A DNA stretch of 42,060 nucleotides, taken from UHGV virus genome UHGV-0384735; one strand, written 5' to 3'. This document shows positions 1 to 41,553 of this stretch, piece after piece. Both the position numbers and the translations under genes were made by a program. Within the stretch, counting starts at the first letter, position 1. Every line of letters begins with the position of its first letter. The notes below the pieces were generated by a model. That model had not been told where the DNA came from. It ran no database searches and was given only the letters and a program-made list of their open reading frames with translations. This DNA is from a virus.

Positions 1-1
1 G

Positions 2-193
2 CTGGGGGGTGTTACCGAGAGCGGGGATGAGTGGGGAGCTAAGGTGGGAGGAACCCAGGGGGCTTTTTCCGGGATGATGAATGCTTATTCCCTTTCCGGT
101 TCCCTGGGGGGGATGGTGCCGGGGAGCATGCAGTCTTCCAACAGGTTGAGGGATTCCCTGCTGGCTAATTTCATGGGTTTTGGAAAGAGATGA
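2..193 (+). CDS. C-terminal fragment of a Gly/Ser/Met-rich virion protein. It would be the continuation of the ORF running off the window end if the genome is circular.
   Basis: Frame 2 is open from base 2 to the TGA at 191-193; the other two forward frames stop early. The translation is LGGVTESGDEWGAKVGGTQGAFSGMMNAYSLSGSLGGMVPGSMQSSNRLRDSLLANFMGFGKR. The stop overlaps the next ATG (ATGA at 190). Confidence 0.35.
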   Translation: MGGVTESGDEWGAKVGGTQGAFSGMMNAYSLSGSLGGMVPGSMQSSNRLRDSLLANFMGFGKR

Positions 194-531
194 GCGTTTC
201 TCCCATGCAGCAGGCTTTTTTTCTGATGGAAGCCCAGCGCCCAGGCTGGTTCCGGGAGACCGTTTCCCTGGCGGACGCGGGAGGAGGGATCGTGTGGTGC
301 TGCCCTTCGTTGTTTTTTGCGGGGGTGCCGGATCCGGAGTCTCCCAGGACATTGATTGTTCTTTTTGCCCACGGCCGCATGGAGGCCGTCAGGGAGCTGG
401 CTTGTCTGGTGCAGGGGCGTTTTGACCGGGCAAGGTGGCAGCGCTGCATCCGCGGGCGCGAGGACTGGAAGGAGATTTCCATCACCAGGTTTTTAAGTTT
501 TAACCGTTTCAAGATGAAAGAAGATGAGTGA
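190..531 (+). CDS. Hypothetical small protein in the internal virion protein operon
   Basis: 113-aa ORF. It is translationally coupled on both sides (ATGA at 190, ATGAGTGA at 524). Confidence 0.5.
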   Translation: MSVSPMQQAFFLMEAQRPGWFRETVSLADAGGGIVWCCPSLFFAGVPDPESPRTLIVLFAHGRMEAVRELACLVQGRFDRARWQRCIRGREDWKEISITRFLSFNRFKMKEDE

Positions 532-2482
532 TTTACAGCAACCCATGTACGGAGGAGCCCGGATGAATGCGGCTTCCTCCACCCCTGCCCCGGTCCAGAT
601 GCCGGATGTTTCTTCCAAGCCCGTTCAGAGGGCGCTGCAGAATGCCCAGGAGTTTGTGTCTGATGTTGCCCACCAGTACCAGCGCATGAAGGATTTCGGC
701 GAGCAGACGCGGCTGGAAGGCCGGATGAATGATTTGGCCAGCGAGTTTGAGCAGGAGATGACCCGGAGATTGGGGTTTGCCCGCGGTCATGAGCTGTCTT
801 TTTACGATCGTGACGGGAGGCTGAAAGAGAGCGCCCTGAATACGTTTGTACGGAATTACGAAGGGAAGTTCCGCGGATTGAAGGGGAGTTTTGTTTCCCA
901 GGAGGAGGCCGCCAGGTTCGGAGCCAGACAGCAGGATGTGATGCGCCGACTCCAGGGGCGGGCTTCCGAGCTGGTTCTTAAGGGACAGATTCAGGAGTCC
1001 AGACAGGCTTTTGAAGAGGGGTTGAAGGGGGATTTGCTGCGGAGGGATTACCAGGGAGCCACCCGTAGGCGCATTCAGGCTTACGAGGCCGGCATTATTT
1101 CTGAGAATGGAATGAACAACGGTATTCTGGAAGATACACGGAACGGCCTTTTGGACGAATACGAGCAGGATATGCTGATTAACCCCAGTGTTGCTTTTAC
1201 GAAGCTTGGGGACGGCTATTTTGATGCTCTGGGCGCAGGAGATGTTTTAAAGCTGAAGGAGAAGACCAGAAGGTTTTTACGTTCCGCGAATCGCTCCGAA
1301 GGTGAAGATGGAGCGCCCGGTTACAGAAAGGGTTCTCTTTGGCCGAAAGCTTCCCTCCGTTACGGAGCCACGGAGCAGGAGTACGACTGGGTGGAGCATT
1401 ATAACCGGACCGGCAGTTACAGGAAATACGCCCCTTCCATTAAGTTTGCCTTCCGGGAGGATTTACGGAATCTGCCCCCCGCCAATTCCGGCGAAGAAAG
1501 AACAAGGTACGTCAATGACATGTTGAAGAAGTGGGGGCAGTATGGACAGGTTCTTGGAGATGAAAGGAAGTTGCGCCTGTTTGTGGAAGACCGGATTGAC
1601 GCCATGGGGAGCCCCAATACGAACCGGAATAATATAGAGGCCGTTTTGAAGGCCATGCCGGATCATGTATATATCCCTTATTTTTCTTACCAGGTAGCTA
1701 ATGCTTACAAGAGTGGTGACCAGGAGCAGATTAAGAAGGAAGAGAATACGCGGGATGAGGTGGAGGCAGATATTTTGTATAAGACGGAACTTTCCATGAC
1801 AGAGTGGAGACAGGCTCATCCTAATGCCACACTTGCCCAAGATCTTGCGCAGATCCATAAATTCACCGCTTTTCATGCCGGGAACAGGTTTGCCTATCGG
1901 CCTATTACCGAAGAAGACAAAAAAAGATCTGACGAGAGCCGCATGAAGAAGGCGCTGGAGTCCATGCCTTTGTATTCTTTTGAGCAACAGGAAGAGTTGA
2001 ACGTGTCTCCAGAAGAGAGGGAGGCCCAGCAGAAGAAGGCGGCACAATATATTAAGGGCCAAAGACCTTATTTGCCTTCCCCTCTTGAGAACCACCCTGT
2101 TTCTTTTGTCCGGCATGGTACGTCCGGAGCGTATGTTTCCAAGCAGGCTTATGAGGCTATCAAGGCTAAGTTTGGGAATAGGCCTTTTGCCCGCATTTCT
2201 CTGGGACGCAACGGAGCTTTTCTAAAGGTTCCCGTGGTCGGGGTTTATGAGGGGACCCCGCGGGGCGTTGAGGTTTCAGGACCGCTTTATGAACGCATGG
2301 CGTTAAGGTTTCCCGGTGAACAGGCCAGCGGGAATGTCAGCATTTACGACGGGAAGGATGAACCGGAAGCGCCGAAAGATGGATACGGACCAGGCCTGCT
2401 GCCTCCTTTGCCGGGTGGGGACGATACTTACACGCAGGTGAACGATATTGGCGATTCCGCTCTTTTACCTCTTAATCAATAG
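524..2482 (+). CDS. Putative internal virion (ejection/core) protein, 652 aa
   Basis: Long ORF immediately upstream of the giant virion protein, in the position of the T7 gp14/gp15 region after tubular protein A. No recognisable catalytic motif. Confidence 0.5.
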   Translation: MSDLQQPMYGGARMNAASSTPAPVQMPDVSSKPVQRALQNAQEFVSDVAHQYQRMKDFGEQTRLEGRMNDLASEFEQEMTRRLGFARGHELSFYDRDGRLKESALNTFVRNYEGKFRGLKGSFVSQEEAARFGARQQDVMRRLQGRASELVLKGQIQESRQAFEEGLKGDLLRRDYQGATRRRIQAYEAGIISENGMNNGILEDTRNGLLDEYEQDMLINPSVAFTKLGDGYFDALGAGDVLKLKEKTRRFLRSANRSEGEDGAPGYRKGSLWPKASLRYGATEQEYDWVEHYNRTGSYRKYAPSIKFAFREDLRNLPPANSGEERTRYVNDMLKKWGQYGQVLGDERKLRLFVEDRIDAMGSPNTNRNNIEAVLKAMPDHVYIPYFSYQVANAYKSGDQEQIKKEENTRDEVEADILYKTELSMTEWRQAHPNATLAQDLAQIHKFTAFHAGNRFAYRPITEEDKKRSDESRMKKALESMPLYSFEQQEELNVSPEEREAQQKKAAQYIKGQRPYLPSPLENHPVSFVRHGTSGAYVSKQAYEAIKAKFGNRPFARISLGRNGAFLKVPVVGVYEGTPRGVEVSGPLYERMALRFPGEQASGNVSIYDGKDEPEAPKDGYGPGLLPPLPGGDDTYTQVNDIGDSALLPLNQ

Positions 2483-2499: not shown

Positions 2500-5400
2500 A
2501 TGTTTGCACAGGATGTTTTTGAAAGGTTGGGGCTGTCCCAAGATACGGATTTATTGAACGATCTCCAGAAAGAGGCGTTGTTAGAGCCAACGGAAGCGGC
2601 GCAGAGTCCCTATATGGATGACCCGGCATATGCCGGTTTTGAGACTTTGCGCGGTTTGTTTGGTTCCAACCATGGAGATAATCCCTCCATGTATTGGCTG
2701 GCACAGGGAGAAGAGATGCCTGAATTTGCCACCGTGGCGGACGCACAGGCTGCCGTCTGGAAGGATTTCCAGAAAAAGGCCCGTGCTTATCAGGCAGAGC
2801 AGGAGCGACAGCAACAGGCACGGGAGGCATTGGCTGCTACGATTGATCCCTTCATTGACCGGTACGTGCGCGGGGACGCTGTGGTTCCCTCCCCTGAACA
2901 AGTAATGATGATGCAGGAGGCAGGCATTTCCTGGGAGAGTGTCAGACGAGCCCGAAGAGGGATGGAACTTGTCCGGGAATATGACGCGCAGGGCACCCTG
3001 TACGACGACAGGATCATCAATAATCTGGCGGAACAGGTGGGAGATGATGAGTTGGCACGGCGCATTGTGCTGAATATGTTTTATAATGACGCCAGGAAGT
3101 ACGCCAAGGATAAGCACGGTGACGAGTGGACCGGGATTGACTGGATAGATAAGGCAGCCCAGGGGGTAACGGGGATGGTACGCACCGGGGGCGTGAAGGG
3201 ATGGCGGACAGGTCAGAAGGCCTGGCGGAATTTACAGGTAATGGGAGAGGTGGATGCCGTTACGAATGCAGCTAAGCGTCTGCCGGAGTTGATTGCTTCC
3301 GGAATGGATGTGGATGAAGCACGCGCTCAGATTGAGAAGGATGCCACTTTTCTTGAGATACGACGCCGCTGGGCTGCCGATCTGGTTCAAACCATGGAAG
3401 CCGGGGAGAAGGAATATTTGGAAGGTGAGGACCGCCATTTGGTTGGCCGCATTGGTTCGCAGCTTGGTTCCATTATCGGAGATACGGCTCCCTGGTTCAT
3501 TCCTGCCATTGGTCCTGCTATCGGAGCTTCCTCCGCCATGCAATCCCGCAGAGATGAGGGGGTGAGCATTGGGTTAACTATGGAGGAAACGGAGAAGAGG
3601 GCCATGATGTTCGGCCAGGCAGATGCTCTGGAAGAGATGATTGCTTTTTCCCCCATCGGGCGGTTGACGCCCGGATATAAGTGGTTGAAGAAGGCGCTTG
3701 GCGGTGGGAAGGCCGCCGGGAAGCTGGCCCCGTGGCGGGCTCGATGGATGGCGAGTCCGAAGGCCCAGTACGCTATTCAAGGGCTTTCCGGCGCTGCGGA
3801 AGAGGCCATTCTTGAGCCTACAGCCGGGTATTTGATGCGTACTGTACAGAGCATGAATCTGACGGACGAACGCGGAAAACAGACTTTCCGTCAGTATTTG
3901 GACGATATGGGGCAGATGATGCACGGAGAACAGGGGCTTGCCCTGCTGGCATTTACGTTTGGGATGTCCGGCTTTAATTATCCTCAAATCAAAAAGGCAG
4001 CCCAGGAGTTCGGTCTTTCTCTGCAACATTACAAGGAACTGGGAGGCACGGCCCAGGGGTATCTGGAGGCCAGGGAGGAAAAGACCGCCGAAGGTTTTTT
4101 GAATAAGGCCCTTGCCAATTTGCATGATTCCTGGATGGAGGATCCGCAGGCTTCCCAGGAGCGGGCGAGCGCGGCTGCCGGAGAACGCCTTTCCGGGGAA
4201 CGCATTGAGTCTTTGAGGGAGCTGGACGCGTGGCGGGCTGCCGAGGATGCCGGCATGGTGCCGCGGGTGGAGCCGGCGGAACAGGAGGGGATGTTCCGGG
4301 TGTATGCTCCAGCGCGCAGCACGAAAGCGCCGCGGGAGGATGCTTCCGTCTCCAGAGAGGGGCAGGAAGAGAACGCCCCTTCTTACACGCTGATGGACGG
4401 CGAGCAGATGACGGCTTATTTACAGGCGTTTGTGAGCGAGCAGGTGGAGAGTGACATCCTCTACACGCAGCATTTGCTGGCCGGGGACGTGACGGTGAGC
4501 CAGGCCCTGGCCCAGGGGCGTTTTGACGCGGCGGAGGTGATTACGCGCACAGTGACGGATGAACAGACAGGGGCCGAACGGGTGGTGATTGCCCCGGAGA
4601 CGCTGGGGCAGATGAAGGCCCGCGCGGATATGGCGATGGCCGCTATCCGCGCCCTGGAGGCGGAGGGTGTGAGTTATGAGGATGCCGCCGCCCGCATGGA
4701 TGCCTCGTTGAGCGAGCATATTCCGCTGGGAACTCTTGTGAAGACATGGGAGGAAGCCCAGGAACGCATCAGGACGGAACAGGCCCGCACCCCAGAGTTC
4801 AAGGTTCCGGCCATGGATGCCCCGTTTTCCAACGCTTATGTGACGAAGGTCCGCCGGGGAGATACGTTCCGCCGGGTGTTGAGGTATGCCCGCGGGAATG
4901 CGACGGTGGAGGATTTGATGGAGGAAACGATGGAACAGGCTGTCATCTCCTGGCAGGCGGAGCAGGGTTTGACCTGGGGCGAGTTCGGCGCGATGCTCCA
5001 GGAGGCGCAGAAGTCCATCAATGATTTGTTCCCGGAGGCGCGGGGGGAGGAGATGCAGTTTATTCACCTGGACGCCGGGAAGCCGGTGACGGGTCATGAC
5101 GCGATTGAGGCTTTTTCCAAGATCGGGCGTTCCCGCTGGCTGGCGGACGCGATGAATCATCCTTCCCTGCCCTCCTGGCTGCGGAAGCTGCTGAATCATC
5201 TGGTGAAGTTCCTGGGGGCTTTCAAGGCGCGCGTGGAGCTGGGCGAGATGGTGCGCCAGGCGGAGGAACAGGGCGTGTTTACCCTGCCGGTTAGGCAGGC
5301 TCTGGCGGTGATGCTGGATGCGGGGAATGCCCTGTACCGGGACCAGCAGGGGGATTTGATTGCCCTGACTATGGAACGGGCCAAGGCGCAGGCGGACCTG

Positions 5401-8400
5401 GATGCCGCCCTGGGCCGCGGTGTCGCCACGGAACAGGAGACGCTGGAAGAGCAGCTTGCCGAACGCAATGCCGCTGATGAACCGGGGCCCGTGGACCGGG
5501 CGGAAGAAGAGGCCGACGACGCGAACGCCCAGCAGGCGCGGCGCGAACGCACGGAGGCGGAGGTAGAGATGCTGGGGGAACGGGATGATGACGGCGTGTT
5601 TAACGGAGGGGTGAGCATTCGTATTGAGGACGGGGTGCGCCAGGGTTTTATTGACAAGGACCGGCTGACGCTTTGCCCGGATGTTCCCCAGTTCAAGCAA
5701 GGGGCCGATGAAAAGACGGGGGTGGTGAACCGGATTGTGGGGGCCTGGCAGCGCAACGCCGCGCCGATTTCCGTGTGGCGCCGGACTGATGGTTCCCTGC
5801 AGGTGATTTCCGGCAGGCACCGCCTAGACGCCTGCACGGATGCGGATATTAATTGCACGGTGTATGATGAGGCAGACGGGTTTGATTTGGATTGGGCGCA
5901 GACGCATGACGTGGAGAACAATATCCGGGACGGCCAGGCGAGCGCGTTTGAGATTGCCCGCTACGTTCGGGATTCCTCCCTGTCCATGGCGGAGGCCGTG
6001 GAGCGCGGGATTGCCAGGAAGGGAGCCTCCCTGAAAGGGGTGGAGCTGGGGCTTTATGCCAGCCAGGAGCTTTTGGATGCGCTGGGCAACGGGCTGGTTT
6101 CCCCGGATGACGCCTACCGCGTGGCCCTGGCGTTCCGCAATGATGCCGAGGTGCAGCGTTCCGGGCTGGCCGTGCTGCTGGACGGCGGGAGCTGGCAGGA
6201 GGCTTATAATACCATGGCGGCCAAGGCGAACCTGGAAGCGATTGCCCGCCAGAATGCGGCCAACGGCATGGATATGGGCATGGACCTGTTTGGGAATACG
6301 GATAATGAAGAGCTTTACAAGCGCATCGGGAAGTACGCGGCGGAGAAGTACCGCGAGCTCGGCAAGGAGCTGACGGCGATTAACGGCGCTTCCCGGAATC
6401 CGAAGGTGGCCCGGAAGTATGGCGTGAATGTGAATGACGCGGCGGCGGTGCAGCAGGTGGTGAAGCGGTTGCAGGAGGAACGTTCCCGCTGGAAGAATTT
6501 TGCCGTGCATCCCGATTTGCTCAAGGAGGCCAATGACGCCGTGATGGTGGAGCTGGGGTTGAAGACGCAGGCACAGGTGGATCAGGAGAATGGCGTGCTT
6601 CCTTTAGAGGCTCCAGAACAGGAGGCGGATTCCGACGATGCGGGGATGTTGCTGCTTTCCCAGGATGTGAACCGGATGCTGGAGGATTTTATAAAACGGG
6701 AGGAGGTTCATTTTTCCCTGGCCGGGGAGAATGAAGCATTGCTGGCTCCCAATGGAGAGCCATCCCATCTGACGCCGCAACAATACCGACAAGTAAGGAC
6801 GCCAGAGTTTAAGCGGTGGTTTGGGGATTGGGAGAAGGTAGCCCGGTTCAAGGCAGCCGTGGAGAAGATTATGTCTATGGAGCCGGTGGCGGCCATTTCC
6901 GGCCAAGAGTTCCAGAAGGACGGCATCCCCCTGACCGAAAAGGTGACGAAGTTCTGGAAGGAGCGTTTTAACGGAGTAGCCATTTCTCCCGAACTTGGAG
7001 AGGTAAGGCTTGATCTTGAAGGCGTGAAGTCTTCCATTGGACACGGCATCGGTTCATTGAAGTCCGCGGCTTTTGCCTGCGTAGAAGACGTGATCCGGAA
7101 CGGCGTTGTGTTTGACCGTCAGAAGAATTGGAAAGAACGCGGTTACGATACAGCGGTGATTGCCGCTCCCGTCACGATTAAGGGCGTGGAGTATGTTTGC
7201 GAGGTTGTTGTTGAGCAACGTACCAACAGACAGGGATTTTACCTGCATGAGGTGGAGATAAAGAAGAAGCTCGAAGACGTGTTCAAGACCTCCACTGAAG
7301 GAGGCACGCCCCAAGCTTCCAGAAGTATATTAGCCCTGCGAGCCGAAGATGTCAAGAGGGAGGAAGAGGGCATGTCCAAGGTGGTGGACGAGAACGGAGA
7401 GCCACTGGTGGTGTATCATGGTTCCCCGCATGTTTTTACCGTGTTTGACGTGGAGCGTTCCGGAGAGAATTTTAACCGGAGCCGGGAGGATGGAGGGTTG
7501 TTGTTTTTTTCTTCCCTGCCGGAGACGGCGGAAGATGTGCTTCATGATTTAGAGGGCCGTTTTCCGGGGACCGGGTTGGAGAGTGCGCGGCTGTACGCGT
7601 GTTTTATGAGGTTGAGGCGTCCGTTTACGCTGGATCTTGGCGATGCTTCACAGCGCCCGTTTTCCGGTGAGGGTGTGCCGGAGAGCGTGAAGGGTTCCCC
7701 GATGGCGTGGTATTTGTTTCCTCACGAGTTGAGGAGAGGGTTTGATGAGGGGAATGCTCATGGCGCAGGTTATGACGGTATTGTTTTGAAGGGCAGGAAT
7801 GCTTATGACGGGAGTCCGGAGGTGTGGGGGATGGCTACGGATTCCCGGCAGGTGAAGAGCGCTGCCGATAACCGCGGGACGTTTGATTCAGAGAATCCGG
7901 ATATTACGTTTTCTATTATTGGGGAGAAGGCAGAGTCCTTCCAGGAGTACCACAATAACGGCCTGTCCTACACGGATCCGGCGGACGGGAAGCGGAAGGC
8001 GATTATTGATTCCCGCGGGGTGCGGTTGAGGAAGGAGCACGTCAGCGTGAGCGAGGGGGGGCATGTGAATGTTTCCCTGGCCGCGGCCCTGGATTTCCCG
8101 GAGTTGTTCCGGGCTTACCCGGAGCTGCAGAAGCTGAGGGTGGATTTTTACCGGGACAGCAGGAGCGGCACGGGAGGGTTTACCGATCCGCAGGAGCATT
8201 ATATTGCCGTGAATGTGGCACGGGGCGGGAAGAACGCGGATGCCGGCATGGTGCTGGATACGATTCTGCACGAGGTACAGCATGTGATTCAGGGGTATGA
8301 GGGGTTTGCCCAGGGGGCCGGTCGCATGAGCCGGGATCAGGCGCTTGCTTATCTGGGCGAGAGCATGATCCAGCTGGCGGGCCGGGACGACGCCTGGGCG

Positions 8401-11400
8401 AAGGAGGCCCTGCCGCGCCTGGAACGGATGAGGCAGGAACTGGAGGCCGGGACGTTGCAGCCAGCGTTTGTGTATGTTTTTTCCCACGGGGAGCAGGAGG
8501 CGCGGCTTGCCGGGAGGTTTGAGAAGAATAGCGAGGGCGTGGTGATGAGCGGCCTGAACGGGTTCCGCCTGCTGGACGCTCCGCAGTTTTCGATTCCGCT
8601 GACGGGGAATATTACGGAGCTTGGCGGCATTACGTTCGGGGCCGGGAGGTTTGGCCGGATGGCCGACAGGGTTTTGGCTCCGAACGGGGATTGGCTTTAC
8701 GATGAGATGGTGTTCAGGATGCGGGCCGCCGCGCAGCGGTCCGTGAATAAGCTGAACCTGTATGAGACCGGAGACCGGGAGCGCGGCCTTGAGCTGCTGG
8801 CGGAGGCGCAGGAACTGATTGCCACGGTGGAGCGGTTTCTTCCCCATACGTACGGGTTCGGGTTGGAACCTTACAAAATCTGGCTGAATGTGTTTTCCCT
8901 GCTTTACGGGAATAGCGGGAAGATGGCGCCGGATGAGGCGCTTTCCAGCGCGTTGAGCGCGATTCCCATGGAGAAGTGGCCGGAGATTATGGCGGGAAGT
9001 GTGATGAAGCATTTCTGGGGGTATGTAAAACAGCATGAGACGCTGGGTCCCGTGTGGGAGGGTAAGATGAAGGAGTTTGAGGAAGAGGCGAAATTTACCG
9101 AAGCCGGGGAGAAGGCCGCGGAATTGGATAAGCGCCGGTGGGAGTTTTTTATAGCGAATGGCGCGGAGTTCCTGGAGAAGTACGGGCAGGTGAAGGTGTA
9201 CCGCCTGATTAGCAAGTTCATGGCCCGCGTGGTGGAACAGATTGACCGTTACCGGAAGGACCGGACGCTGGGGCGCATCCGCCGCGTGGCTGCGTCCGTG
9301 GCTCCGCGGACGAATCCGAAGGGAAAGCCGCTGCGCGGGAAGATGGACGCGGAGAGTTACCGGAGGCTGGAGAGGTGCTTGCGCCTGCTGGAGATGACCG
9401 AGAGCCAGTACGATGAGTTTTTCCAGAAGAATTTTCCGGAGGATGCCGAAGAGGGGAAGAGGTGGGAGGATCTGGCCCCGGATGCGCTGGTGCTGGTGAC
9501 GCTGCCCGACGCGGAAGGGAGGCTGGAAGAGGTGGCCGTAACGCAGCGGGAGTTTGAGGTTTACGCCTGTTATGAACGGATGGACGTGAATACCGCGGAG
9601 AAGTGCGGCGCGACCCTTGGAGAATTGATTGCCACGACCCGCCATGCCTGGGAGAACGCAGCGGAGAAGAAGAAGATGGAGGTTGCCGCCATGGCCGCCC
9701 CACTGCTGCAGGCCACCGGGAATTTGGATGATAACAGGATGGCAACGTTCCGCCGGAAAGCGAGGCTGCGGGCTTTGCCGAAGAAGCCCCTTTCCCTGTT
9801 TGATTATCTGATGAATTTTAATCAGTATATGCAGGCGCTTTCTTCCGTGGGGCCGTTTGCCGGGATTGCCCGCCAGTTTGAGGAACGGGCGGCGCGGTTT
9901 AATGTGCAGCGGCAGGCGAGCGAGAAGGAGATGCTGCGTTTTGTGCACAATACCGTAGCGGAGATTGCGGGGTCCGCGGACCGGTATGATATTGCCGAGT
10001 GGATTTATGAGGGGCGCATGAAGCAGGATACGGGGATTTCCGTTGTGGAGCGGGAACCGGATTGGAACAGGAAGGCCAACGCCCTGTACCGGGAACGCCT
10101 TCTTCATTTGCTGCGCCGGAAGGTGAAGTCTCACGGGCTGGAAGCGGTGCAGCTTTATTTGAGGGAGTTTAAGCTTTCCGAGGATTTGAAGAAGGAGGTG
10201 AACGCCCTGTTCGGGCACCGCCGCAAGGAGATTTCCGCCAAGCAGGCGAAGAAGGCATTGGAGCACATGGAGCGCGTGTTTACGCAGAAGGAGTGGGAGC
10301 GGTACGGGGACCAGAAGGTTTTTGTGAGGGAGCGGGCGGAGATGCTGCGTTCCAGGACGAAGTATGCCAAGGAGGGGTATCAGCCGAAGAGTTTCCGGCT
10401 GGATGGCCTGTCCCGGATGGAGGCGGCGTATCTGGTGCTGTTGTCCGAGCAAGCGGATTATACCGAGGCCCTGGCGGAACGCGGGTTTGACGCGGAGGTG
10501 ATGGACCGGCTGCGCGGGTTTGCCGGGGATGAGGTGATGCGGTTTGCGTATGCTTTACGGGAGAAGCTGAATGAGCGAAGCGGACAGGTGCAGGAGATGA
10601 CCGAGAGGCGCTACGGCACGCCGTTTCCGCTGACGGAGAATTATTTCCGGGCGTTTTTCGATGTGACGATGGAGGCGATTGATAAGTCGATTGCCGATGC
10701 GGCGTCTTACGGGGAAGCGGCCACGGGCGGGAAGTTCGGGTTGATTCACGCCCGCCGGAAGCATCAGGCTCACCTGGATTTGGAGATGGATGTTTGCACG
10801 GCGTTTATGGCGGCCATGACCGAGCAGGATCTTTACCTGTACGGCTCCGAGATCAGCCGTGATTTGCGGGCTTTGCTGAATTTCAAGGGCGAGGACGGCG
10901 AGGCGGGCCGGAGCCTGGAGGTGCTGCTGGGGCGGGATGCCGTGGGCAAGCTGATGGCCTGGGCGGATGCGTTTGACCGCGCCGGGGCGGAGAGTATTCG
11001 CGGGCACCTGGATATGAACCGCCTGATGAACCGGCTTTCCGGCGCGGCGGCGCGGGTGCTGCTGGCCGGGCGCGTGGGGACGCTGACCAAGCAGGTGACG
11101 ACGGTGATTAACGCGATGTATGCTTCCGACGAGATTGGCCTTGACGAGTGGCTGGGGGCCGTCCGCCGGTATCACGCCGGGAAGCTGGTGAAGCCTGTAC
11201 GCGAGATAGAGGCCCTGCCGGAGCTGGACAGCCGCGACAAGACGCGGTTCAGCGCCACGCTGGCTGCCATGGGGGCCGATGAGGCCGGGCGCCGGGTGTC
11301 CCGCCTGGAACGCTGGAACCGGGAGGGGATGGATTTGCTGGAACGGGTGGATATGAAGGGGAATGCGATTTCCGCGGCTATTTTGTACGATGCGGTTTAC

Positions 11401-12168
11401 CGGAAGATGAAGCGTGAGACGCCGGACGCTGCGGAGGCCGAGCTTGACGCGGCCGCCATGGCGGAGGTGCGGCGCTCCCTGTCCCGCAAGGGTCAACCGA
11501 TGACGCAGTTGCAGAAGTCCCTGGCCGCGCAGCACCGGACCTGGATGCAGGCGGGGATGTTGTTCCTGGGCGGCGAGTCGATCAATACGATGGGCAATGT
11601 GTTTTCCCTGGCCCGCAGCGGGCAATGGGGGAAGGCCGGGTTGATGTGGGTTTCTCACGGGGTGGTGCTGGCCCTTCTGAATGGGCTGCTTAATTTCATG
11701 ACCGATGACGAGAAGCGCCGCCGGAAGCGGGAGTGGTGGCACGCCCTGTTTGATGTGGTGATGGGGCCCGTGATGGGGCTCCCTGTCGTGAGCGGGCTGG
11801 CTGGCGAGGGGGTGAGGCAGCTTGCGAAGCTGTGCGGGTATCATGCTTTTATGCCGGGGAATAATTTGCTGGTGCCTTTTTCCAATGCGGCGGATATCGG
11901 GAAGGCGTTTTCCAACGCCTGGAAGGTGTTTGACGGCAAGGAACGGCCTTGGGAGGATGACGCCCTTTCTTTCCACGAGCTTTTACGTACTGCGGCGGCG
12001 GGGACGGTGGCGTTTTCTCCGCGGACGACCAAGGGGGGCGCCGCTGCGGTAGGGGCTGCCCTGACGATGGCAGCGTTGCTGAATGTGACAGAGTTTGCCC
12101 TTAAAACAGTCCGCAGCGTTCAGGAGAACGGAGCGGATTGGGATAAGTGGGTTGGGAACCGGAAGTAG
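2500..12168 (+). CDS. Giant (3222 aa) polyvalent internal virion protein, a gp16-like ejection protein with ParB-like, zincin and C-terminal TM modules
   Basis: Single uninterrupted 9.67-kb ORF. S-G-R-H-R-L-D-A (ParB/Srx-like) at 5812-5835. L-H-E-V-Q-H (zincin HExxH) at 8266-8283. FKRWFGDW at 6808-6831 and KVVDENGEPLVVYHGSPHVF at 7381-7440, which I recall as motifs of phage/ICE polyvalent proteins. Hydrophobic TM-like helices near the C-terminus (about 11540-11830). All long antisense ORFs here are GC-driven shadows. Confidence 0.85.
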   Translation: MFAQDVFERLGLSQDTDLLNDLQKEALLEPTEAAQSPYMDDPAYAGFETLRGLFGSNHGDNPSMYWLAQGEEMPEFATVADAQAAVWKDFQKKARAYQAEQERQQQAREALAATIDPFIDRYVRGDAVVPSPEQVMMMQEAGISWESVRRARRGMELVREYDAQGTLYDDRIINNLAEQVGDDELARRIVLNMFYNDARKYAKDKHGDEWTGIDWIDKAAQGVTGMVRTGGVKGWRTGQKAWRNLQVMGEVDAVTNAAKRLPELIASGMDVDEARAQIEKDATFLEIRRRWAADLVQTMEAGEKEYLEGEDRHLVGRIGSQLGSIIGDTAPWFIPAIGPAIGASSAMQSRRDEGVSIGLTMEETEKRAMMFGQADALEEMIAFSPIGRLTPGYKWLKKALGGGKAAGKLAPWRARWMASPKAQYAIQGLSGAAEEAILEPTAGYLMRTVQSMNLTDERGKQTFRQYLDDMGQMMHGEQGLALLAFTFGMSGFNYPQIKKAAQEFGLSLQHYKELGGTAQGYLEAREEKTAEGFLNKALANLHDSWMEDPQASQERASAAAGERLSGERIESLRELDAWRAAEDAGMVPRVEPAEQEGMFRVYAPARSTKAPREDASVSREGQEENAPSYTLMDGEQMTAYLQAFVSEQVESDILYTQHLLAGDVTVSQALAQGRFDAAEVITRTVTDEQTGAERVVIAPETLGQMKARADMAMAAIRALEAEGVSYEDAAARMDASLSEHIPLGTLVKTWEEAQERIRTEQARTPEFKVPAMDAPFSNAYVTKVRRGDTFRRVLRYARGNATVEDLMEETMEQAVISWQAEQGLTWGEFGAMLQEAQKSINDLFPEARGEEMQFIHLDAGKPVTGHDAIEAFSKIGRSRWLADAMNHPSLPSWLRKLLNHLVKFLGAFKARVELGEMVRQAEEQGVFTLPVRQALAVMLDAGNALYRDQQGDLIALTMERAKAQADLDAALGRGVATEQETLEEQLAERNAADEPGPVDRAEEEADDANAQQARRERTEAEVEMLGERDDDGVFNGGVSIRIEDGVRQGFIDKDRLTLCPDVPQFKQGADEKTGVVNRIVGAWQRNAAPISVWRRTDGSLQVISGRHRLDACTDADINCTVYDEADGFDLDWAQTHDVENNIRDGQASAFEIARYVRDSSLSMAEAVERGIARKGASLKGVELGLYASQELLDALGNGLVSPDDAYRVALAFRNDAEVQRSGLAVLLDGGSWQEAYNTMAAKANLEAIARQNAANGMDMGMDLFGNTDNEELYKRIGKYAAEKYRELGKELTAINGASRNPKVARKYGVNVNDAAAVQQVVKRLQEERSRWKNFAVHPDLLKEANDAVMVELGLKTQAQVDQENGVLPLEAPEQEADSDDAGMLLLSQDVNRMLEDFIKREEVHFSLAGENEALLAPNGEPSHLTPQQYRQVRTPEFKRWFGDWEKVARFKAAVEKIMSMEPVAAISGQEFQKDGIPLTEKVTKFWKERFNGVAISPELGEVRLDLEGVKSSIGHGIGSLKSAAFACVEDVIRNGVVFDRQKNWKERGYDTAVIAAPVTIKGVEYVCEVVVEQRTNRQGFYLHEVEIKKKLEDVFKTSTEGGTPQASRSILALRAEDVKREEEGMSKVVDENGEPLVVYHGSPHVFTVFDVERSGENFNRSREDGGLLFFSSLPETAEDVLHDLEGRFPGTGLESARLYACFMRLRRPFTLDLGDASQRPFSGEGVPESVKGSPMAWYLFPHELRRGFDEGNAHGAGYDGIVLKGRNAYDGSPEVWGMATDSRQVKSAADNRGTFDSENPDITFSIIGEKAESFQEYHNNGLSYTDPADGKRKAIIDSRGVRLRKEHVSVSEGGHVNVSLAAALDFPELFRAYPELQKLRVDFYRDSRSGTGGFTDPQEHYIAVNVARGGKNADAGMVLDTILHEVQHVIQGYEGFAQGAGRMSRDQALAYLGESMIQLAGRDDAWAKEALPRLERMRQELEAGTLQPAFVYVFSHGEQEARLAGRFEKNSEGVVMSGLNGFRLLDAPQFSIPLTGNITELGGITFGAGRFGRMADRVLAPNGDWLYDEMVFRMRAAAQRSVNKLNLYETGDRERGLELLAEAQELIATVERFLPHTYGFGLEPYKIWLNVFSLLYGNSGKMAPDEALSSALSAIPMEKWPEIMAGSVMKHFWGYVKQHETLGPVWEGKMKEFEEEAKFTEAGEKAAELDKRRWEFFIANGAEFLEKYGQVKVYRLISKFMARVVEQIDRYRKDRTLGRIRRVAASVAPRTNPKGKPLRGKMDAESYRRLERCLRLLEMTESQYDEFFQKNFPEDAEEGKRWEDLAPDALVLVTLPDAEGRLEEVAVTQREFEVYACYERMDVNTAEKCGATLGELIATTRHAWENAAEKKKMEVAAMAAPLLQATGNLDDNRMATFRRKARLRALPKKPLSLFDYLMNFNQYMQALSSVGPFAGIARQFEERAARFNVQRQASEKEMLRFVHNTVAEIAGSADRYDIAEWIYEGRMKQDTGISVVEREPDWNRKANALYRERLLHLLRRKVKSHGLEAVQLYLREFKLSEDLKKEVNALFGHRRKEISAKQAKKALEHMERVFTQKEWERYGDQKVFVRERAEMLRSRTKYAKEGYQPKSFRLDGLSRMEAAYLVLLSEQADYTEALAERGFDAEVMDRLRGFAGDEVMRFAYALREKLNERSGQVQEMTERRYGTPFPLTENYFRAFFDVTMEAIDKSIADAASYGEAATGGKFGLIHARRKHQAHLDLEMDVCTAFMAAMTEQDLYLYGSEISRDLRALLNFKGEDGEAGRSLEVLLGRDAVGKLMAWADAFDRAGAESIRGHLDMNRLMNRLSGAAARVLLAGRVGTLTKQVTTVINAMYASDEIGLDEWLGAVRRYHAGKLVKPVREIEALPELDSRDKTRFSATLAAMGADEAGRRVSRLERWNREGMDLLERVDMKGNAISAAILYDAVYRKMKRETPDAAEAELDAAAMAEVRRSLSRKGQPMTQLQKSLAAQHRTWMQAGMLFLGGESINTMGNVFSLARSGQWGKAGLMWVSHGVVLALLNGLLNFMTDDEKRRRKREWWHALFDVVMGPVMGLPVVSGLAGEGVRQLAKLCGYHAFMPGNNLLVPFSNAADIGKAFSNAWKVFDGKERPWEDDALSFHELLRTAAAGTVAFSPRTTKGGAAAVGAALTMAALLNVTEFALKTVRSVQENGADWDKWVGNRK

Positions 12169-12201
12169 TTAAAGTATCTTATCCAGTATATACAAGTGCG
12201 A

Positions 12202-12813
12202 CTATTTAAGGATAGTGTCTGCTTTAACAACTTTTTCTTTTGCTTGCTTCTCCAAATTTGGAACTGCTCTAAACATAGAAGCAAGCTCTTTTGCATCTTC
12301 AATTGACATTCTAATTGAAAATTTGCCTGTCCCTGGATCATTAAAAAACAACTGAACATGGGAACTTGTTTTTCCAAGCACATCTATCATAGATTTAGAT
12401 TCATTCAACATGGATATAAAATAAATATCAAACGAATACTTTCTTGGATTTTTTTCTAATGGAGCATAGTAAGAGGCAACAAATTTATTTGTTGCTAATT
12501 CACTATCTTCCACTATATCGGCCCATTTTGCGCATTTTTCTAAACTTTTTGCTATATTGATTGCATCTTTGTTTGAAAAATATTGTGTAACAAATCTAGG
12601 ATAAATATTTTTTTTAATTTTATCTTTTGGAAGTATAAAAATCACCAATCTATGCCATTCATCACTTGAGACATGCAAGTGTATTTTAAAATCACATTCG
12701 TTCAAAAAATGTATATTTAATATTTTGTCACTTTTTACAGAACATTCGGTTCGAGCAAATGAGACTCCCGAAATAAATACCCACACCGCAAATATCACAT
12801 ATAGAATCTTCAT
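12202..12813 (-). CDS. Secreted hypothetical protein (N-terminal signal peptide), AT-rich cargo
   Basis: 203-aa ORF with N-terminus MKILYVIFAVWVFISGVSFA. About 35% GC against roughly 58% for the phage backbone. Overlaps the upstream gene by 4 nt. Confidence 0.5.
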   Translation of the reverse strand: MKILYVIFAVWVFISGVSFARTECSVKSDKILNIHFLNECDFKIHLHVSSDEWHRLVIFILPKDKIKKNIYPRFVTQYFSNKDAINIAKSLEKCAKWADIVEDSELATNKFVASYYAPLEKNPRKYSFDIYFISMLNESKSMIDVLGKTSSHVQLFFNDPGTGKFSIRMSIEDAKELASMFRAVPNLEKQAKEKVVKADTILK

Positions 12814-13109
12814 AGAATGGAATATTTACTAGCTCCTCCACAAATCTTGCAATTCACACCGCTGGGCGTATCGCTGGCTCGCCCTTTGCAAGCCCGGTAG
12901 TACCGGCAGTTTTTGTTATGGGTCTTGCCCGTTGAGCTGATCCAGTACGCTTTTTCTTCCGCTGTTGGCTTGGCCGCTGGTTTCCGGTGGTAGTGGTATT
13001 CCCCTGTTTTGCGGTTGTAGTGACCACCGTTGGCATCCAGGCCGCCAGGGTGCGCGCCTGAGAATGAAGTGAGGGAAATAACAGCCAAAATGAGAGAGAA
13101 TAGTTTCAT
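12810..13109 (-). CDS. Small secreted YHYH-motif protein with a C-terminal Cys module
   Basis: 99 aa. Signal peptide MKLFSLILAVISLTSFSGA, GGHYNRKTGEYHYH motif, and a C-terminus YWISSTGKTHNKNCRYYRAC...NCKICGG. The same module recurs at the C-terminus of the adjacent nuclease. Confidence 0.55.
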   Translation of the reverse strand: MKLFSLILAVISLTSFSGAHPGGLDANGGHYNRKTGEYHYHRKPAAKPTAEEKAYWISSTGKTHNKNCRYYRACKGRASDTPSGVNCKICGGASKYSIL

Positions 13110-13227
13110 GCGAATTCATAATACCATGAAATATAGAGAGTTGTAAATAATTTGCTTAACTCTTTCAAAAGCATTATGAAAGGATTATTTCCAACATTTA
13201 TTTACATTTTTCACCTGTAGTTTATCG

Positions 13228-14121
13228 TTGTTTGTTAGAGGGGGCCGTGGTATCGCCTTTTCCGTGAGGTTGCTGTTTTTCTTTTTAGCCAGCATTTGCA
13301 TTTCTTATGGTGAAAGCTTTAGGGGCTTTGTCATCAATGTGATTAATGGCGATACAATTACTGTTTTGGAGAAGACTCCAGAACAAAAACAAGCTTACAG
13401 AGTTCGTTTGAAGGGAGTTGATGCTCCTGAAAAAGGGCAGTATGGCTACAGCGGGGCTAAATATTTTTTGGAGAAGTTGATATGGGGTGAAATGGTCACG
13501 GTTCAATATTCGGGGCGTGACAAGAACGGAGTTATTTTGGGGCTGGTATTGTATGGGGGGACGTTCGTGAATTATGAAATGGTCAAAGAGGGGTGGGCAT
13601 GGTACGACAAAAAATATTTCGATAGCCGGGAGCTTGAGAGGTTGGAAGCTTCAGCGAAGAAGGAGCAGAAAGGATTATGGGCAGAGGAGAATGCGATTCC
13701 CCCTTGGGAATGGAGAGAAGGAGAGAGGGGTAAGGAGCCTTCCCAGGATAATAAAAGGATAGTTACTTATTGGATCAGCTCAACGGGAAAAACGCACCTT
13801 CCCGGATGTCGGTATTATGGTGTGGGGATGGGAGCGTTTAATAATCTTGGAACGGCAGATTATTGCGGCCTGTGCTGGAAGATGCCCAAGGTGAAAGTCA
13901 GGAAGTCTGAACTGACTTATGATCCTTTTCCTGGGCCAGTAAAGACATCTTCTTCCCCTAGAAGATCATATTCGAGTCCCAGGCATAATTCCATTTATCA
14001 TCATGTGTTTTCTCCAAGCACGAGTACCGATTCCAAAGGACGCATTATTTACACGGGACCGCGTGGAGGAAGGTATTACATTAACAAGAACGGGAATAAG
14101 ACGTATATCAAAAGAAAATAA
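13228..14121 (+). CDS. Secreted thermonuclease (staphylococcal nuclease / SNase fold) with a C-terminal Cys module
   Basis: VINVINGDTITV, VRLKGVDAPE, GLVLYGG..NYEMVKEGWA and EKGLWAE match the SNase catalytic core. The signal peptide is likely from the GTG at 13264 (MRLLFFFLASICISYG); the tool start at 13228 is TTG. C-terminus YWISSTGKTHLPGCRYY...YCGLCWK. AT-rich. Confidence 0.8.
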   Translation: MFVRGGRGIAFSVRLLFFFLASICISYGESFRGFVINVINGDTITVLEKTPEQKQAYRVRLKGVDAPEKGQYGYSGAKYFLEKLIWGEMVTVQYSGRDKNGVILGLVLYGGTFVNYEMVKEGWAWYDKKYFDSRELERLEASAKKEQKGLWAEENAIPPWEWREGERGKEPSQDNKRIVTYWISSTGKTHLPGCRYYGVGMGAFNNLGTADYCGLCWKMPKVKVRKSELTYDPFPGPVKTSSSPRRSYSSPRHNSIYHHVFSPSTSTDSKGRIIYTGPRGGRYYINKNGNKTYIKRK

Positions 14122-14123
14122 AA

Positions 14124-14148
14124 GCCCCTGGCCCGGAGACCAAGGGGC
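14124..14148 (+). terminator. GC hairpin after the nuclease gene. Weak terminator candidate.
   Basis: gcccctgg...ccaaggggc stem (one bulge) directly after the stop at 14121. No clear U-run. Confidence 0.3.
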
Positions 14149-14281
14149 GAAGCATTCTAACGTAAAGAGGCCAAATAATAGCCTCTTTTCTCAGAACAAG
14201 CAACTCCTAAATCATTGTTTCAGTATTATTATGTAAAAATGTATACTGGAATTGTTATTGAGGGGTTGTATCCAACAAAAA

Positions 14282-14307
14282 GGAGCTGCCCCGATAAAGG
14301 CAGCTCC
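14282..14307 (-). terminator. Rho-independent terminator for the minus-strand cI/Gp37-68/TcmP/hicA transcript
   Basis: ggagctgcc-N8-ggcagctcc hairpin. On the minus strand it is followed by a T-run (tttttgttgg). It lies 22 nt downstream of the hicA stop. Confidence 0.6.
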
Positions 14308-14328
14308 TGAATATAATAGGGGGAGGTG

Positions 14329-14574
14329 TTAATCTTCCCAGGTTCCACCTGCAGCTTCAATAGCACGCCGTACCTGCGCTATAAGATAGTGGGGGGCATT
14401 GTCATTATCGTGGCCCGGGATAGTTACCGTCTGTCCATGAGGATGATCGTATACACGATGGGAACCCCGTCCTTGTCCTTGCTGCAGAATGAATCCAGCA
14501 TCTCGTAACCGTCTGATTAAATCTCGTATTCGCATAAGTGATGTTGAAGATACGAGAAGAAAGGAGAGTTTCAA
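14329..14574 (-). CDS. hicA: HicA-family toxin (mRNA interferase), orphan. The likely true start is the ATG at 14535.
   Basis: MRIRDLIRRLRDAGFILQQGQGRGSHRVYDHPHGQTVTIPGHDNDNAPHYLIAQVRRAIEAAGG fits the HicA/YcfA pattern (G-S-H, HP, T-I-P-x-H, L-x-x-I-x-x-A-G). The tool start is TTG. No HicB-like ORF is adjacent. Confidence 0.65.
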   Translation of the reverse strand: MKLSFLLVSSTSLMRIRDLIRRLRDAGFILQQGQGRGSHRVYDHPHGQTVTIPGHDNDNAPHYLIAQVRRAIEAAGGTWED

Positions 14575-14725
14575 TGAACGCTGTCCGAATGGAAAAATCA
14601 GCCTTTTTAACAGTCTGCATTGCTTAGGAGAGATTCACCGTACTCAATTGATTGGATCACAAGAAAATTATTTTTTGGATGTCAGAGGGGTAAAGGATAC
14701 TGAAAAGAGTATCTAAAAGGGTCAC

Positions 14726-15829
14726 TTATGAAAAATATGTGATTTCTCTATCTTGATTTGGCTGAGGTCTTCTAAAAGAGCATTGCAGAATTTTATTGTC
14801 CTTTAGCTTTTTCAATACGGGTTCACAATGTTCTGGGAGCATCCATAAATCACAACATTTATCATAGAGTGCGGATTCTGAAATAGGATGATTCTCTAAA
14901 ATAAAGAGTTTAAATTGTTCCTGAAGATTTTCTATATGAGTTTTTTTAAAAGCAAACAAAAGTTGACTGTCTTTATTTGGCTGATCTTCATGTAGGAAGA
15001 AATTTGCCAACCCTTCTACAGGATCTTCTTTCCAACACAGGCGTAAAAATTGATCTATTCCTCTTCTGCTTCCAGAAAAATAGATTAAGCCGTAAATATT
15101 TGTTTTTTTCTTAAAAGCAAATGATCCGAAAAATAGTTTTTTCTCTAAAGGGGCTTCTCTAAATGCTTTTAATATTTGAGTATGAACATGTCTATAATCT
15201 TTGGGATTTTTGAATTTGTATCCCATATCAGAAAATCGATTTTGAAGTTCTTTAAAACGGTGCAAAGACGAGGAAGCCATAAAAACCATACAATCTGTAT
15301 AGTAGCATTTAGACAAGCTAATAAGCTTCTCCATATCGAAATGAGCCATTCCAAATTGATCAATAAAAAGAATATTTGCAGTATTTGTTTTCCTTATTTC
15401 TTCTATATGATCATTGAAGGAAGTCTCAAAATCTGATGTTTTAAACTCAATTTTTATATGTGGATGGGAAGATAGACTGTCTCCAAAAATGTCTTTGATA
15501 TTTTTCTGGAGGGAGTTAATACTTTTTTCTTTACGGTCAAAAAAATGAAAATATATTGGTTTTCCCCATAGATGTTTGGTTTGAGGTGCCGTTGCCATTT
15601 CCAATATTGTTTTAATGGCAAGAAGAGGGCTACCATAACGTCCTAATGCATCCATTCCTGGTCCTGCAAAAAAGTCATAAATATTTATGGACTTAACAGG
15701 AGAAGTAGGAGGCAAATTTAGGAATACTGCGACAGCACTCTTTAGGTAACTGGCGTATATATTGAGTTTTTGAAGAGTACCTGCATCAAAAGCACGATTG
15801 TGAAATCCTGTATTACTTGACATTAACAA
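14726..15829 (-). CDS. tcmP: Three-Cys-motif partner protein (TcmP-like) with a possible Rossmann/MTase-like FAGPG motif
   Basis: 367 aa, about 33% GC. The start is 4-10 nt after the stop of the upstream Gp37/Gp68 gene (AAGGAG RBS, then the TTG at 15829 or the ATG at 15823). INIYDFFAGPGMDALG resembles SAM-binding motif I. The family assignment is from memory of the TcmP family that co-occurs with Gp37/Gp68 proteins. Confidence 0.6.
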   Translation of the reverse strand: MLMSSNTGFHNRAFDAGTLQKLNIYASYLKSAVAVFLNLPPTSPVKSINIYDFFAGPGMDALGRYGSPLLAIKTILEMATAPQTKHLWGKPIYFHFFDRKEKSINSLQKNIKDIFGDSLSSHPHIKIEFKTSDFETSFNDHIEEIRKTNTANILFIDQFGMAHFDMEKLISLSKCYYTDCMVFMASSSLHRFKELQNRFSDMGYKFKNPKDYRHVHTQILKAFREAPLEKKLFFGSFAFKKKTNIYGLIYFSGSRRGIDQFLRLCWKEDPVEGLANFFLHEDQPNKDSQLLFAFKKTHIENLQEQFKLFILENHPISESALYDKCCDLWMLPEHCEPVLKKLKDNKILQCSFRRPQPNQDREITYFS

Positions 15830-15832
15830 GCA

Positions 15833-16585: not shown

Positions 16586-16600
16586 AAAATTCTTTTTGGA

Positions 16601-19370: not shown

Positions 19371-19378
19371 ATAGCATC

Positions 19379-21596: not shown

Positions 21597-21611
21597 GAAG
21601 GAGACGACAAC

Positions 21612-40983: not shown

Positions 40984-41553
40984 ATGATGCCTCAAATGGA
41001 TAAGGTGACCGTTTTTAACCAGGCTTTGGCCCAGTTTGGGGACCGGGAGTATGTGAAGGGTTCCCCAGCCGGTCGCACCGTTGATTTGTGGTGGCCTACC
41101 GTGTTGCGGGAAGCGCTGTTGTTCGGGGCATGGACCTGGGCAACCAAACGTGTTGAGATGGATCGCTCCGTTATGAGGCATCCGATTCCGGATGATTGCC
41201 TGCGCGTGCTGTATGTGGGGGCGGATTTGTTCCGCATTGAGGGGCGTGATTTGGTGGTTGAGCGTTACGGAAAACGCGCCGCCGGGACCGATAAGCTGGT
41301 GGTGGATTATCTTTCCGACGAGGTGGCCCGTTCCGAAGTGCTGCCGGATCACAGTCCGTTTTTTATCAAGGGCGTTGTGTTTCTTCTGGCGGGCAGGTGC
41401 GCTTTGAAGCTGGCTTCTTCTCCCCAGCTTGCGGCCGCTTTGGAGGCACAGGGGGAGGCGTTTTTAAGCAAGGCCCTTTATTGGGACACCTGCCAGCATT
41501 CTTCCAACGACCAGGATCCTTTAACAGAGATTTTAAGCAGTTCCATTTTCTGA
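40984..41553 (+). CDS. Tail tubular protein A (T7 gp11-like)
   Basis: MMPQMDKVTVFNQALAQFGDREYVKGSPAGRTVDLWWPTVLREALLFGAWTW parallels the T7 gp11 N-terminus (VNDILASIGEPPVSTLEGD...RRILNKINRQIQSRGWTF). About 190 aa, the same size as gp11. Confidence 0.55.
   Translation: MMPQMDKVTVFNQALAQFGDREYVKGSPAGRTVDLWWPTVLREALLFGAWTWATKRVEMDRSVMRHPIPDDCLRVLYVGADLFRIEGRDLVVERYGKRAAGTDKLVVDYLSDEVARSEVLPDHSPFFIKGVVFLLAGRCALKLASSPQLAAALEAQGEAFLSKALYWDTCQHSSNDQDPLTEILSSSIF

Follow-up and report, generated by a model that had tools for sequence, protein, structure and literature searches.

A giant protein of an Akkermansia phage carries predicted ADP-ribosyltransferase, ParB-fold and zincin-like modules and is probably a packaged polyvalent protein

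The virus genome UHGV-0384735, a stretch of 42,060 nucleotides that was analysed at its full length and is referred to below as the window, devotes 9669 nt, or 23% of the genome, to a single open reading frame (ORF). This giant ORF occupies positions 2500-12168 of the plus strand, begins with ATG and runs in an unbroken frame to encode a protein of 3222 amino acids (359.8 kDa, isoelectric point (pI) 5.35). From N- to C-terminus it comprises an acidic arm, a ParB-fold module, a cassette with a predicted ADP-ribosyltransferase (ART), a zincin-like module and a basic C-terminal module that contains hydrophobic segments (Table 1). We conclude that it is probably a phage-type polyvalent protein, packaged into the virion and injected with the DNA according to the model proposed for this class. 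An initial annotation of the window had placed the 9.67-kb ORF exactly, as it had the motifs LHEVQH (8266-8283, aa 1923-1928) and FKRWFGDW (6808-6831, aa 1437-1444). VISGRHRLDA is also present, although its ends had been set 9 nt and 3 nt too far downstream, at 5812-5835, and KVVDENGEPLVVYHGSPHVF (aa 1627-1646) lies at 7378-7437, 3 nt away from the 7381-7440 first given.

The giant ORF is a real gene. When 90%-identity clusters were searched with the full protein, identical or 99%-identical copies accounted for all the matches listed, at least 120, with the identical protein itself in more than 100 clusters. They derive from source contigs of 10 kb to 2.88 Mb and are labelled Akkermansia muciniphila or Akkermansia sp. 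wherever the source names a host. Public databases already hold the protein under the names 'ADP-ribosyltransferase-containing protein' (NCBI/UniRef) and 'PolyVal ADP-Ribosyltransferase [Caudoviricetes sp.]' (nr). Since the lone HExxH or G[RK]H[RK] of the protein also arises in about 7% of same-composition shuffles, motifs by themselves prove little, and an assembly fusion or a run-on frame with chance motifs might be imagined. The weight of the motifs comes instead from their invariance among diverged relatives (15 for the zincin-like module and 22 for the ParB module), and an artefact is already refuted by the full-length identical protein on at least 120 listed independent contig matches, by co-linear relatives at 30-68% identity and by Pfam domains that score above threshold; the chance of one is practically nil. 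The full-protein search listed near-identical copies only, and the divergent relatives used for alignments were drawn from 50%-cluster representatives. Searches with the whole protein against PDB sequences and NCBIfam gave no match. The G+C skew of the gene is strongly positive (0.19-0.28).

Of the enzymatic activities predicted for the giant protein, ADP-ribosyltransferase is the best supported. Matches to the Pfam models ART-PolyVal and LPD3 exceed the gathering threshold of each model, and the YHG (H1640) and YDG (D1759) motifs of the ART are conserved in 40 aligned domains. Because Pfam places ART-PolyVal at aa 1630-1795, the VVYHG module marks the start of the ADP-ribosyltransferase. The presence of the KVVDENGEPLVVYHG module had been recognised earlier, but its identity as an ADP-ribosyltransferase, evident from both the Pfam match and the NCBI name, had been missed. 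The cassette opens with the FKRWFGDW linker motif, and phrog_30335 matches aa 1394-1447 around it. The pattern F[KR]xWFG was counted 138 times, spread over 104 of the 150 best cluster representatives; the next xxYHG[ST] follows 151-260 aa downstream in 55 cases, and in another 26 it is no more than 40 aa away. The window protein is of the long-spacing type, with the linker approximately 200 aa before the ART and LPD3 between them.

The assignment of aa 1031-1360 to the ParB/Srx fold, proposed in the initial annotation, is supported at fold level. When a profile of the module was compared with PDB sequences, the six best matches all had the ParB fold, among them Noc (E 0.006), ParB and SbnI, and the helix-turn-helix-like part of the helical region aligns to ParB-family chains. 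In an alignment of 22 relatives at 26-67% identity, G1105 of the segment corresponding to ParB box II is invariant, and R1106, H1107 and R1108 are kept in at least 90% of the sequences; in box III, N1141 never varies and E1139 hardly does. GRHR itself falls between the GERR type found in CTPases and the DGHHR type found in nucleases. ParB_N was matched by 4 of the 22 relatives, below threshold (best E 5.7e-4). The fold appears here in a variant that is invisible to Pfam, which is new in this analysis.

The region that follows the cassette (aa 1796-2210) is likely to be a zincin. Its HExxH, with residues H1924, E1925 and H1928, is the sole one in the giant protein, and in 15 of 15 relatives at 32-52% identity DPADGK (aa 1826-1831), HExxH and GEQEA are invariant, E1998 and E2000 included. 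From this pattern we infer that one of the GEQEA glutamates is a metal ligand. A predicted structure places HExxH and GEQEA on helices 121-140 and 203-210 (model numbering), and its topology of strands followed by the HExxH helix fits a zincin; fold searches were uninformative. Sub-threshold Pfam matches among the 15 relatives are led by zincin families, with the putative metallopeptidase DUF6782 in nine (best E 2.4e-5), SprT-like in three and Peptidase_M91 in two, and eight other families are each matched by no more than two members, at E values of 0.056 or weaker. By hhalign the module matches aa 2147-2334 of gp60 of Pseudomonas phage H66 (probability 98%, E 1.7e-13). In contrast, the profile matched no solved chain in the PDB at E≤10, and the module matches neither the MPTase-PolyVal nor the ArdC Pfam model. 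The zincin of the initial annotation therefore stands as likely, whereas its more specific proposal of an ArdC-like protease is not supported.

Both arms of the protein lie outside known domains. The N-terminal arm is acidic, rich in helix formers and fast-diverging, and it is common to only 4-5 of 150 representatives; in most family members the corresponding region spans about 1000-1300 aa at 17-25% identity. The C-terminal module (1012 aa) is conserved, being 30-46% identical to six relatives in one alignment, and carries the motifs GRIRRV, PFPxxENYFRAFFD (nt 10621-10662), KSQP, LFLGGESINT and TDDE, as judged by conservation across 14 relatives. Neither arm has a match in Pfam, PHROG, NCBIfam or the PDB, or in phages by tblastn, and hhalign of the C-terminal 1000-aa profile against the C-terminus of the Shewanella phage X14 giant, T7 gp14, gp15 and gp16, and H66 gp60 revealed no relationship. 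A likeness of PFPLTENYFRAF to the 'PLxRFG' motif of H66 gp60 was dismissed as coincidence (hhalign 0.1%). The charge of the two ends is markedly asymmetric, with a pI of 4.8 for the first 1030 aa against 9.1-9.6 for the last 1012.

Four hydrophobic segments near the C-terminus are conserved within the family and may be membrane-inserting helices. Kyte-Doolittle values are 1.59-1.69 for aa 3046-3066, 3082-3100 and 3179-3201, and the segment at about 3018-3038 is milder. Hydrophobic helices had been placed at about 11540-11830, which overlaps the observed span, although the segments extend beyond it, to 12102. The LydA holin model (PF16083) gave a sub-threshold match to aa 3055-3095 (nt 11662-11784; E 1.6e-4, 22 bits against a threshold of 28.4), a hint that the two segments it covers might form a holin-like transmembrane hairpin.

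Table 1. Features of the giant gene and of the phage genome that carries it. Positions are nucleotides of the window; aa numbers refer to the giant protein.
Feature	Position	Strand	Details
N-terminal arm	2500..5589	+	aa 1-1030; acidic (pI 4.8), helix-former-rich, fast-diverging; no known domain
ParB/Srx-fold module	5590..6579	+	aa 1031-1360; ParB N-terminal domain, then helical region
VISGRHRLDA	5803..5832	+	aa 1102-1111; aligns with ParB box II (GERRxRA)
E-N-N-I-R-D	5914..5931	+	aa 1139-1144; aligns with ParB box III (ENLQRE)
FKRWFGDW linker motif	6808..6831	+	opens LPD3-ART cassette
LPD3 (Large polyvalent protein-associated domain 3)	6934..7233	+	aa 1479-1578; PF18798, E 6.9e-8, 33.1 bits (threshold 27)
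ART-PolyVal ADP-ribosyltransferase (predicted)	7387..7884	+	aa 1630-1795; PF18760, E 7e-14, 53.2 bits (threshold 31.2)
Zincin-like module	7885..9129	+	aa 1796-2210
HExxH residues	8269-8283	+	H1924, E1925, H1928
GEQEA	8488-8502	+	aa 1997-2001; E1998 and E2000 invariant
Basic C-terminal module	9130..12165	+	aa 2211-3222 (1012 aa), pI 9.1-9.6; conserved
Four hydrophobic segments	11551..12102	+	aa 3018-3038, 3046-3066, 3082-3100, 3179-3201
Tail nozzle, 941-aa ORF	27023-29848		PDB 8ck1_A 'Tail Nozzle', E 1.9e-49; phrog_376
Large terminase (TerL)	29770-31479		
Tyrosine integrase	31764-32870		phrog_1, E 3e-47; Pfam Phage_integrase
Major capsid protein	32912-33943		
Endolysin	37220-37879		
T7-type portal	38208-39875		PF12236
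Tail protein (189 aa)	40984..41553	+	phrog_394; 5' of ejection-like ORFs
231-aa Gly-rich ORF	41558-42060 joined to 1-193		split by window ends; hydrophobic Gly-zipper-like stretch
108-aa ORF	205-531		after 231-aa ORF
652-aa late ORF	524..2482	+	stops 17 nt before giant gene; candidate ejection or tail protein

To place the protein among its relatives, aa 1030-2229 were searched against 1.84 billion 50%-cluster representatives. At E≤1e-3 there were 8077 matching representatives, of which 699 also passed E≤1e-30; lengths of 2000-7000 aa were common. Among the 150 best, 16 carry a whole backbone with a constant order: first an N-terminal arm, in most cases of about 1000-1300 aa, then the ParB module, an insert of 36-800 aa and the zincin, and last a C-terminal region of about 1000 aa that reaches the protein end. 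The insert is the variable element. It can hold LPD3 and ART, as in the window protein, MuF_C, a second small zincin-like unit with its own HExxH, or a block of about 420 aa that is matched by no model and has a DIGGG motif resembling methyltransferase motif I; other relatives have no cassette in the slot. A PBECR3 match was also obtained in one relative. Pfam found cassette-type domains only, and none of the backbone, in 14 full-length relatives, so that approximately 2700 aa of conserved backbone lie outside every Pfam polyvalent-protein model. Judged from sequence comparison, these proteins form a family associated with Akkermansia, with a conserved backbone of about 2700 aa covered by no domain library and a defined slot in which effector cassettes are exchanged; both are new here.

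The distribution of the C-terminal module points the same way. A pattern-limited scan of one genome per species, from which any taxonomic restriction is provisional, found 30 loci, 29 in Akkermansia or Akkermansiaceae from human, sheep, deer, rabbit, buffalo and python hosts and one in a metagenome bin labelled Muribaculaceae. The identity of these loci falls to 23% and their ORFs measure about 2300-3750 aa. By tblastn, 72,556 plasmids are essentially devoid of these module variants; the initial annotation had regarded the modules as hallmarks of phages and conjugative elements alike, and only the phage part of that claim is borne out. One relative, P0148, has 6081 aa encoded on a contig of 48,123 bp (about 38%) and combines the ParB module and this C-terminal module with several ART/LPD3 units.

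The giant gene belongs to a temperate, podovirus-like phage or prophage of A. muciniphila. A 178-kb gut contig is 100% identical to the window, without gaps, over 29.7 kb that span the junction of its end with its start, from which it follows that the window represents a complete phage genome of about 42 kb, circularly permuted. The gene order, constant in the copies examined, is portal, ORFs of 86 and 247 aa, the 189-aa tail protein, ORFs of 231, 108 and 652 aa, the giant gene and then a divergent lysogeny module, with the 652-aa ORF and the giant gene co-linear in every prophage copy examined. This order makes the giant gene the final one in the late, structural region that runs from portal to tail. 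In an Akkermansia sp. metagenome-assembled genome (JAZSRB010000016.1), a 3322-aa giant gene is the last prophage gene and adjoins the host genes Band_7 and alaS, which puts the prophage end directly after it. The 231-aa Gly-rich ORF may encode a small ejection protein. PDB sequence searches with the neighbouring 652-, 220-, 231- and 685-aa proteins gave no match, and of the neighbours searched only the 941-aa ORF was identified, as the tail nozzle. The nozzle ORF lies 5' of TerL, overlapping the listed TerL start (29770) by about 79 nt, and is distant from the giant gene. The initial annotation had put the giant gene in the position of T7 gp14-gp16, 'after the tubular proteins'. This is only loosely right, since the phrog_394 tail protein and three ORFs do precede it, but none of those three ORFs (231, 108 and 652 aa) is identifiable in a syntenic comparison with T7 and the nozzle gene sits at the opposite end of the late region.

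Directly 3' of the giant gene lies a block of low G+C content (12200-17400; 38-42%, against about 60% in the giant gene). It contains an ORF with an SNase domain (13228-14121), a DUF5131 ORF, an S24-peptidase repressor and several minus-strand ORFs, and has the look of a lysogeny and accessory module with a different origin.

Giant proteins of this kind have been known as a class since 2017, when phage-type polyvalent proteins were described (Iyer et al., 2017, J Bacteriol; PMC5512222). Like them, the window protein is very large, has many domains and has its gene among the late genes of a phage, and its ART-PolyVal, LPD3, ParB-superfamily and zincin-like peptidase domains are all among the hub domains of the class (PMC5512222). 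It has at least two unrelated effector-type domains, PolyVal and LPD Pfam matches above threshold and a late-gene location, and the earlier description of it as a large polyvalent protein of phage type was correct. It stands apart from the class in that its arms and its variants of the ParB and zincin modules are covered by no Pfam model. Packaged ARTs have been proposed to act on host proteins in the manner of T4 Alt, and the metallopeptidase to process polyvalent proteins into functional units (Iyer et al., 2017, PMC5512222; PMC9503650). The resemblance to Alt is one of logic, both being head-carried, injected ADP-ribosyltransferases if the model holds here; Alt belongs to the R-S-E clade of ARTs and ART-PolyVal is of the H-Y-D type (Iyer et al., 2017; PMC5512222).

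The closest precedent for a virion protein is H66 gp60 (3787 aa), which is annotated 'verified by mass spectrometry as part of the virion'. H66 gp60 and the giants of Stx phages have been assigned to an extended T7 family of internal virion protein (IVP) D, and IVPs were described as hosting 'domains destined for the cytoplasm' (Hardies et al., 2016; PMC4819975). Like the window protein, H66 gp60 exceeds 3000 aa, is the product of the last gene in the structural operon of a temperate podovirus and shares, besides the zincin, LPD3 (E 7.7e-17); both modules occur in Pseudomonas F116-like phages. Unlike the window protein, H66 gp60 has an S-adenosylmethionine methylase site and neither ART nor ParB. 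The structural proteins H66_0044-0059, a set that does not include the H66 portal, are unrelated to those of the window phage, and the comparison gives no support for placing that phage in the F116 structural group. Another polyvalent protein, phi24B gp47 (2811 aa), turned up in virion proteomics and has been put forward as an ejection protein (bioRxiv 10.64898/2026.04.10.717836). Giants of 2715-2740 aa from Shewanella phage X14 (Bocovirus) and Vibrio phages 1.211.A and 1.183.O have the ParB module in common with the window protein (profile E 1e-97 to 1e-99, about 30% identity) and adjoin ejection and tailspike genes; they differ in carrying an N6-adenine methylase and LPD38 and in lacking the ART, the zincin module and the Akkermansia-type C-terminus.

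It can be seen that giant ejection proteins with enzymatic cargo have already been confirmed experimentally in other podoviruses. The likeness of the window protein to T7 gp16 (IVP-D), the N4 gp50 vRNAP and phi24B gp47 would be that of a large virion-internal protein expelled into the cell, and the ejection proteins of N4, H66 and phi24B also deliver enzymatic cargo. By comparison with these three (T7, N4 and phi24B), the window protein lacks an SLT or lysozyme domain, an RNA polymerase, and LPD1, LPD5 and LPD38. The packaging and injection of the protein are argued from the virion location of H66 gp60, with its common zincin and LPD3, from the cytoplasmic cargo of IVPs (PMC4819975) and from the proteomics of phi24B gp47, and they are the natural reading of the position of the gene at the end of the late region.

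On this basis, the giant protein would be a late product of which a few copies enter the capsid. At infection it would be expelled ahead of or with the DNA, as are T7 gp16, N4 vRNAP, H66 gp60 and phi24B gp47, and its helical arms and C-terminal hydrophobic helices could help to build or anchor a conduit across the cell envelope. The zincin would then cut the polypeptide in cis, freeing the cytoplasmic modules. The ART would modify host proteins with NAD+, as T4 Alt does, and so favour establishment of the phage, while the ParB-fold domain could bind nucleotide and DNA and act by nicking or by clamping, a nuclease, an NTPase or a clamp all being admitted. A more ambitious version, to which we give a low probability, holds that the approximately 2700-aa backbone is an undescribed ejection family of Akkermansia podoviruses. 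The ParB domain would serve as an NTP-gated clamp or nickase on the entering genome, for its protection or to pull in the DNA, and the slot would swap injected effectors (ART, MuF_C, the methyltransferase-like block or an RNase) in an arms race.

Several observations weigh against the packaged polyvalent protein. A Pfam scan of ten overlapping segments found no ParB model even at E≤10 and no MPTase-PolyVal model, a weak DUF6782 match being the sole relevant one, and the strand-2 tyrosine of the H-Y-D triad of the ART was not located with confidence. Beyond the zincin and LPD3, the rest of H66 gp60 has no similarity to the window protein. Comparison of the N-terminal, zincin and C-terminal alignments with T7 gp14, gp15 and gp16 by hhalign gave probabilities of at most 0.6%, with the limited sensitivity of a profile set against a single sequence, and profiles had no similarity to P1 DdrB, DarB or DarA, the ParB module having none to DdrB. 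The hydrophobic segments are borderline for transmembrane helices (Kyte-Doolittle 1.6-1.7) and contain conserved polar residues. Packaging itself is a case made by analogy and gene position.

Some of these points bear equally on the role that had been suggested in the initial annotation, namely an injected anti-restriction or anti-defence effector in which an ArdC-like protease and a ParB-like nuclease or NTPase are fused to a T7 gp16 homologue. The ParB fold and the probable zincin are indeed present, the rapid turnover of cassettes in relatives suggests an arms race, and P1 DdrB, from the head-packaged Dar system, pairs a ParB-like domain with a C-terminal metallopeptidase (Iyer et al., 2017; PMC5512222), so that the two proteins are alike in logic, with a ParB-like domain N-terminal to a zincin in one polypeptide. 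However, the comparison with T7 gp16 and P1 DarB that had been suggested gave no similarity to either, no SLT, lysozyme or peptidoglycan-hydrolase Pfam match was found in the giant protein, and the fusion to a gp16-like core is not supported. The zincin profile matched no solved chain at E≤10, no profile matched the Dar proteins, and action on restriction or defence factors is pure conjecture. Furthermore, the cassette is an ART and not the methylase-helicase dyad typical of anti-restriction polyvalent proteins, and Iyer et al. (PMC5512222) favour self-processing as the role of the metallopeptidase. We regard the anti-defence role as improbable. A protein that is never packaged, but acts in the cytoplasm as a late- or lysogen-expressed multi-enzyme modifier of host or progeny components, or as a superinfection-exclusion or toxin-like factor, is also unlikely. 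The gene does adjoin the low-GC lysogeny and accessory block, the protein has no recognisable packaging signal or capsid-targeting motif, and ART domains occur in toxins too (Iyer et al., 2017; PMC5512222). Yet the gene is co-oriented with the virion genes and starts close behind the preceding one, its G+C content is that of the virion genes and not of the accessory block, its partial homologues in H66 (gp60) and phi24B (gp47) are components of virions, and the cassette in relatives can be MuF_C, a head-associated domain. Finally, the protein might be purely structural, an ejectosome or internal-core component whose enzyme-like motifs are non-catalytic relics. Approximately 2000 of its 3222 residues, in the two arms, have no enzymatic signature and are rich in helix formers like internal virion proteins, and both the uncertain ART tyrosine and the departure of GRHR from the GERR of CTPase ParBs would fit such decay. 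The (near-)invariance of HExxH/GEQEA, YHG/YDG and GRHR/ExN at 30-50% identity is not expected of relics, and we consider this explanation very improbable.

The packaged polyvalent protein, which we continue to favour, would be of interest for several reasons. The host is a health-associated gut commensal in which this prophage is common, the identical protein recurring on hundreds of contigs from gut metagenomes and genomes, and a protein of 360 kDa that probably enters with the DNA and carries an ART would give a direct handle on host takeover or lysogenisation. It would also be a tractable case in which to test whether polyvalent proteins enter virions, are injected and process themselves. 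Prophage induction with mitomycin C has a precedent in A. muciniphila strain YL44 (PMC8008629). The exchangeable slot within a conserved backbone offers a natural experiment on effector turnover, and about 2000 residues, in the N-terminal arm and the C-terminal module, have no known homologue.

Two further observations concern the genome as a whole. The integrase gene is co-oriented with, and placed between, the large terminase and major capsid genes, and integration should therefore split the late region. A replication and recombination module at 18475-24969 is 90-93% identical to the Akkermansia phages DTMo-2021a and Chambord, and within the first 25 kb of the window, which include the giant gene, these phages match this module only, a pattern of sequence identity that indicates modular mosaicism among Akkermansia phages.

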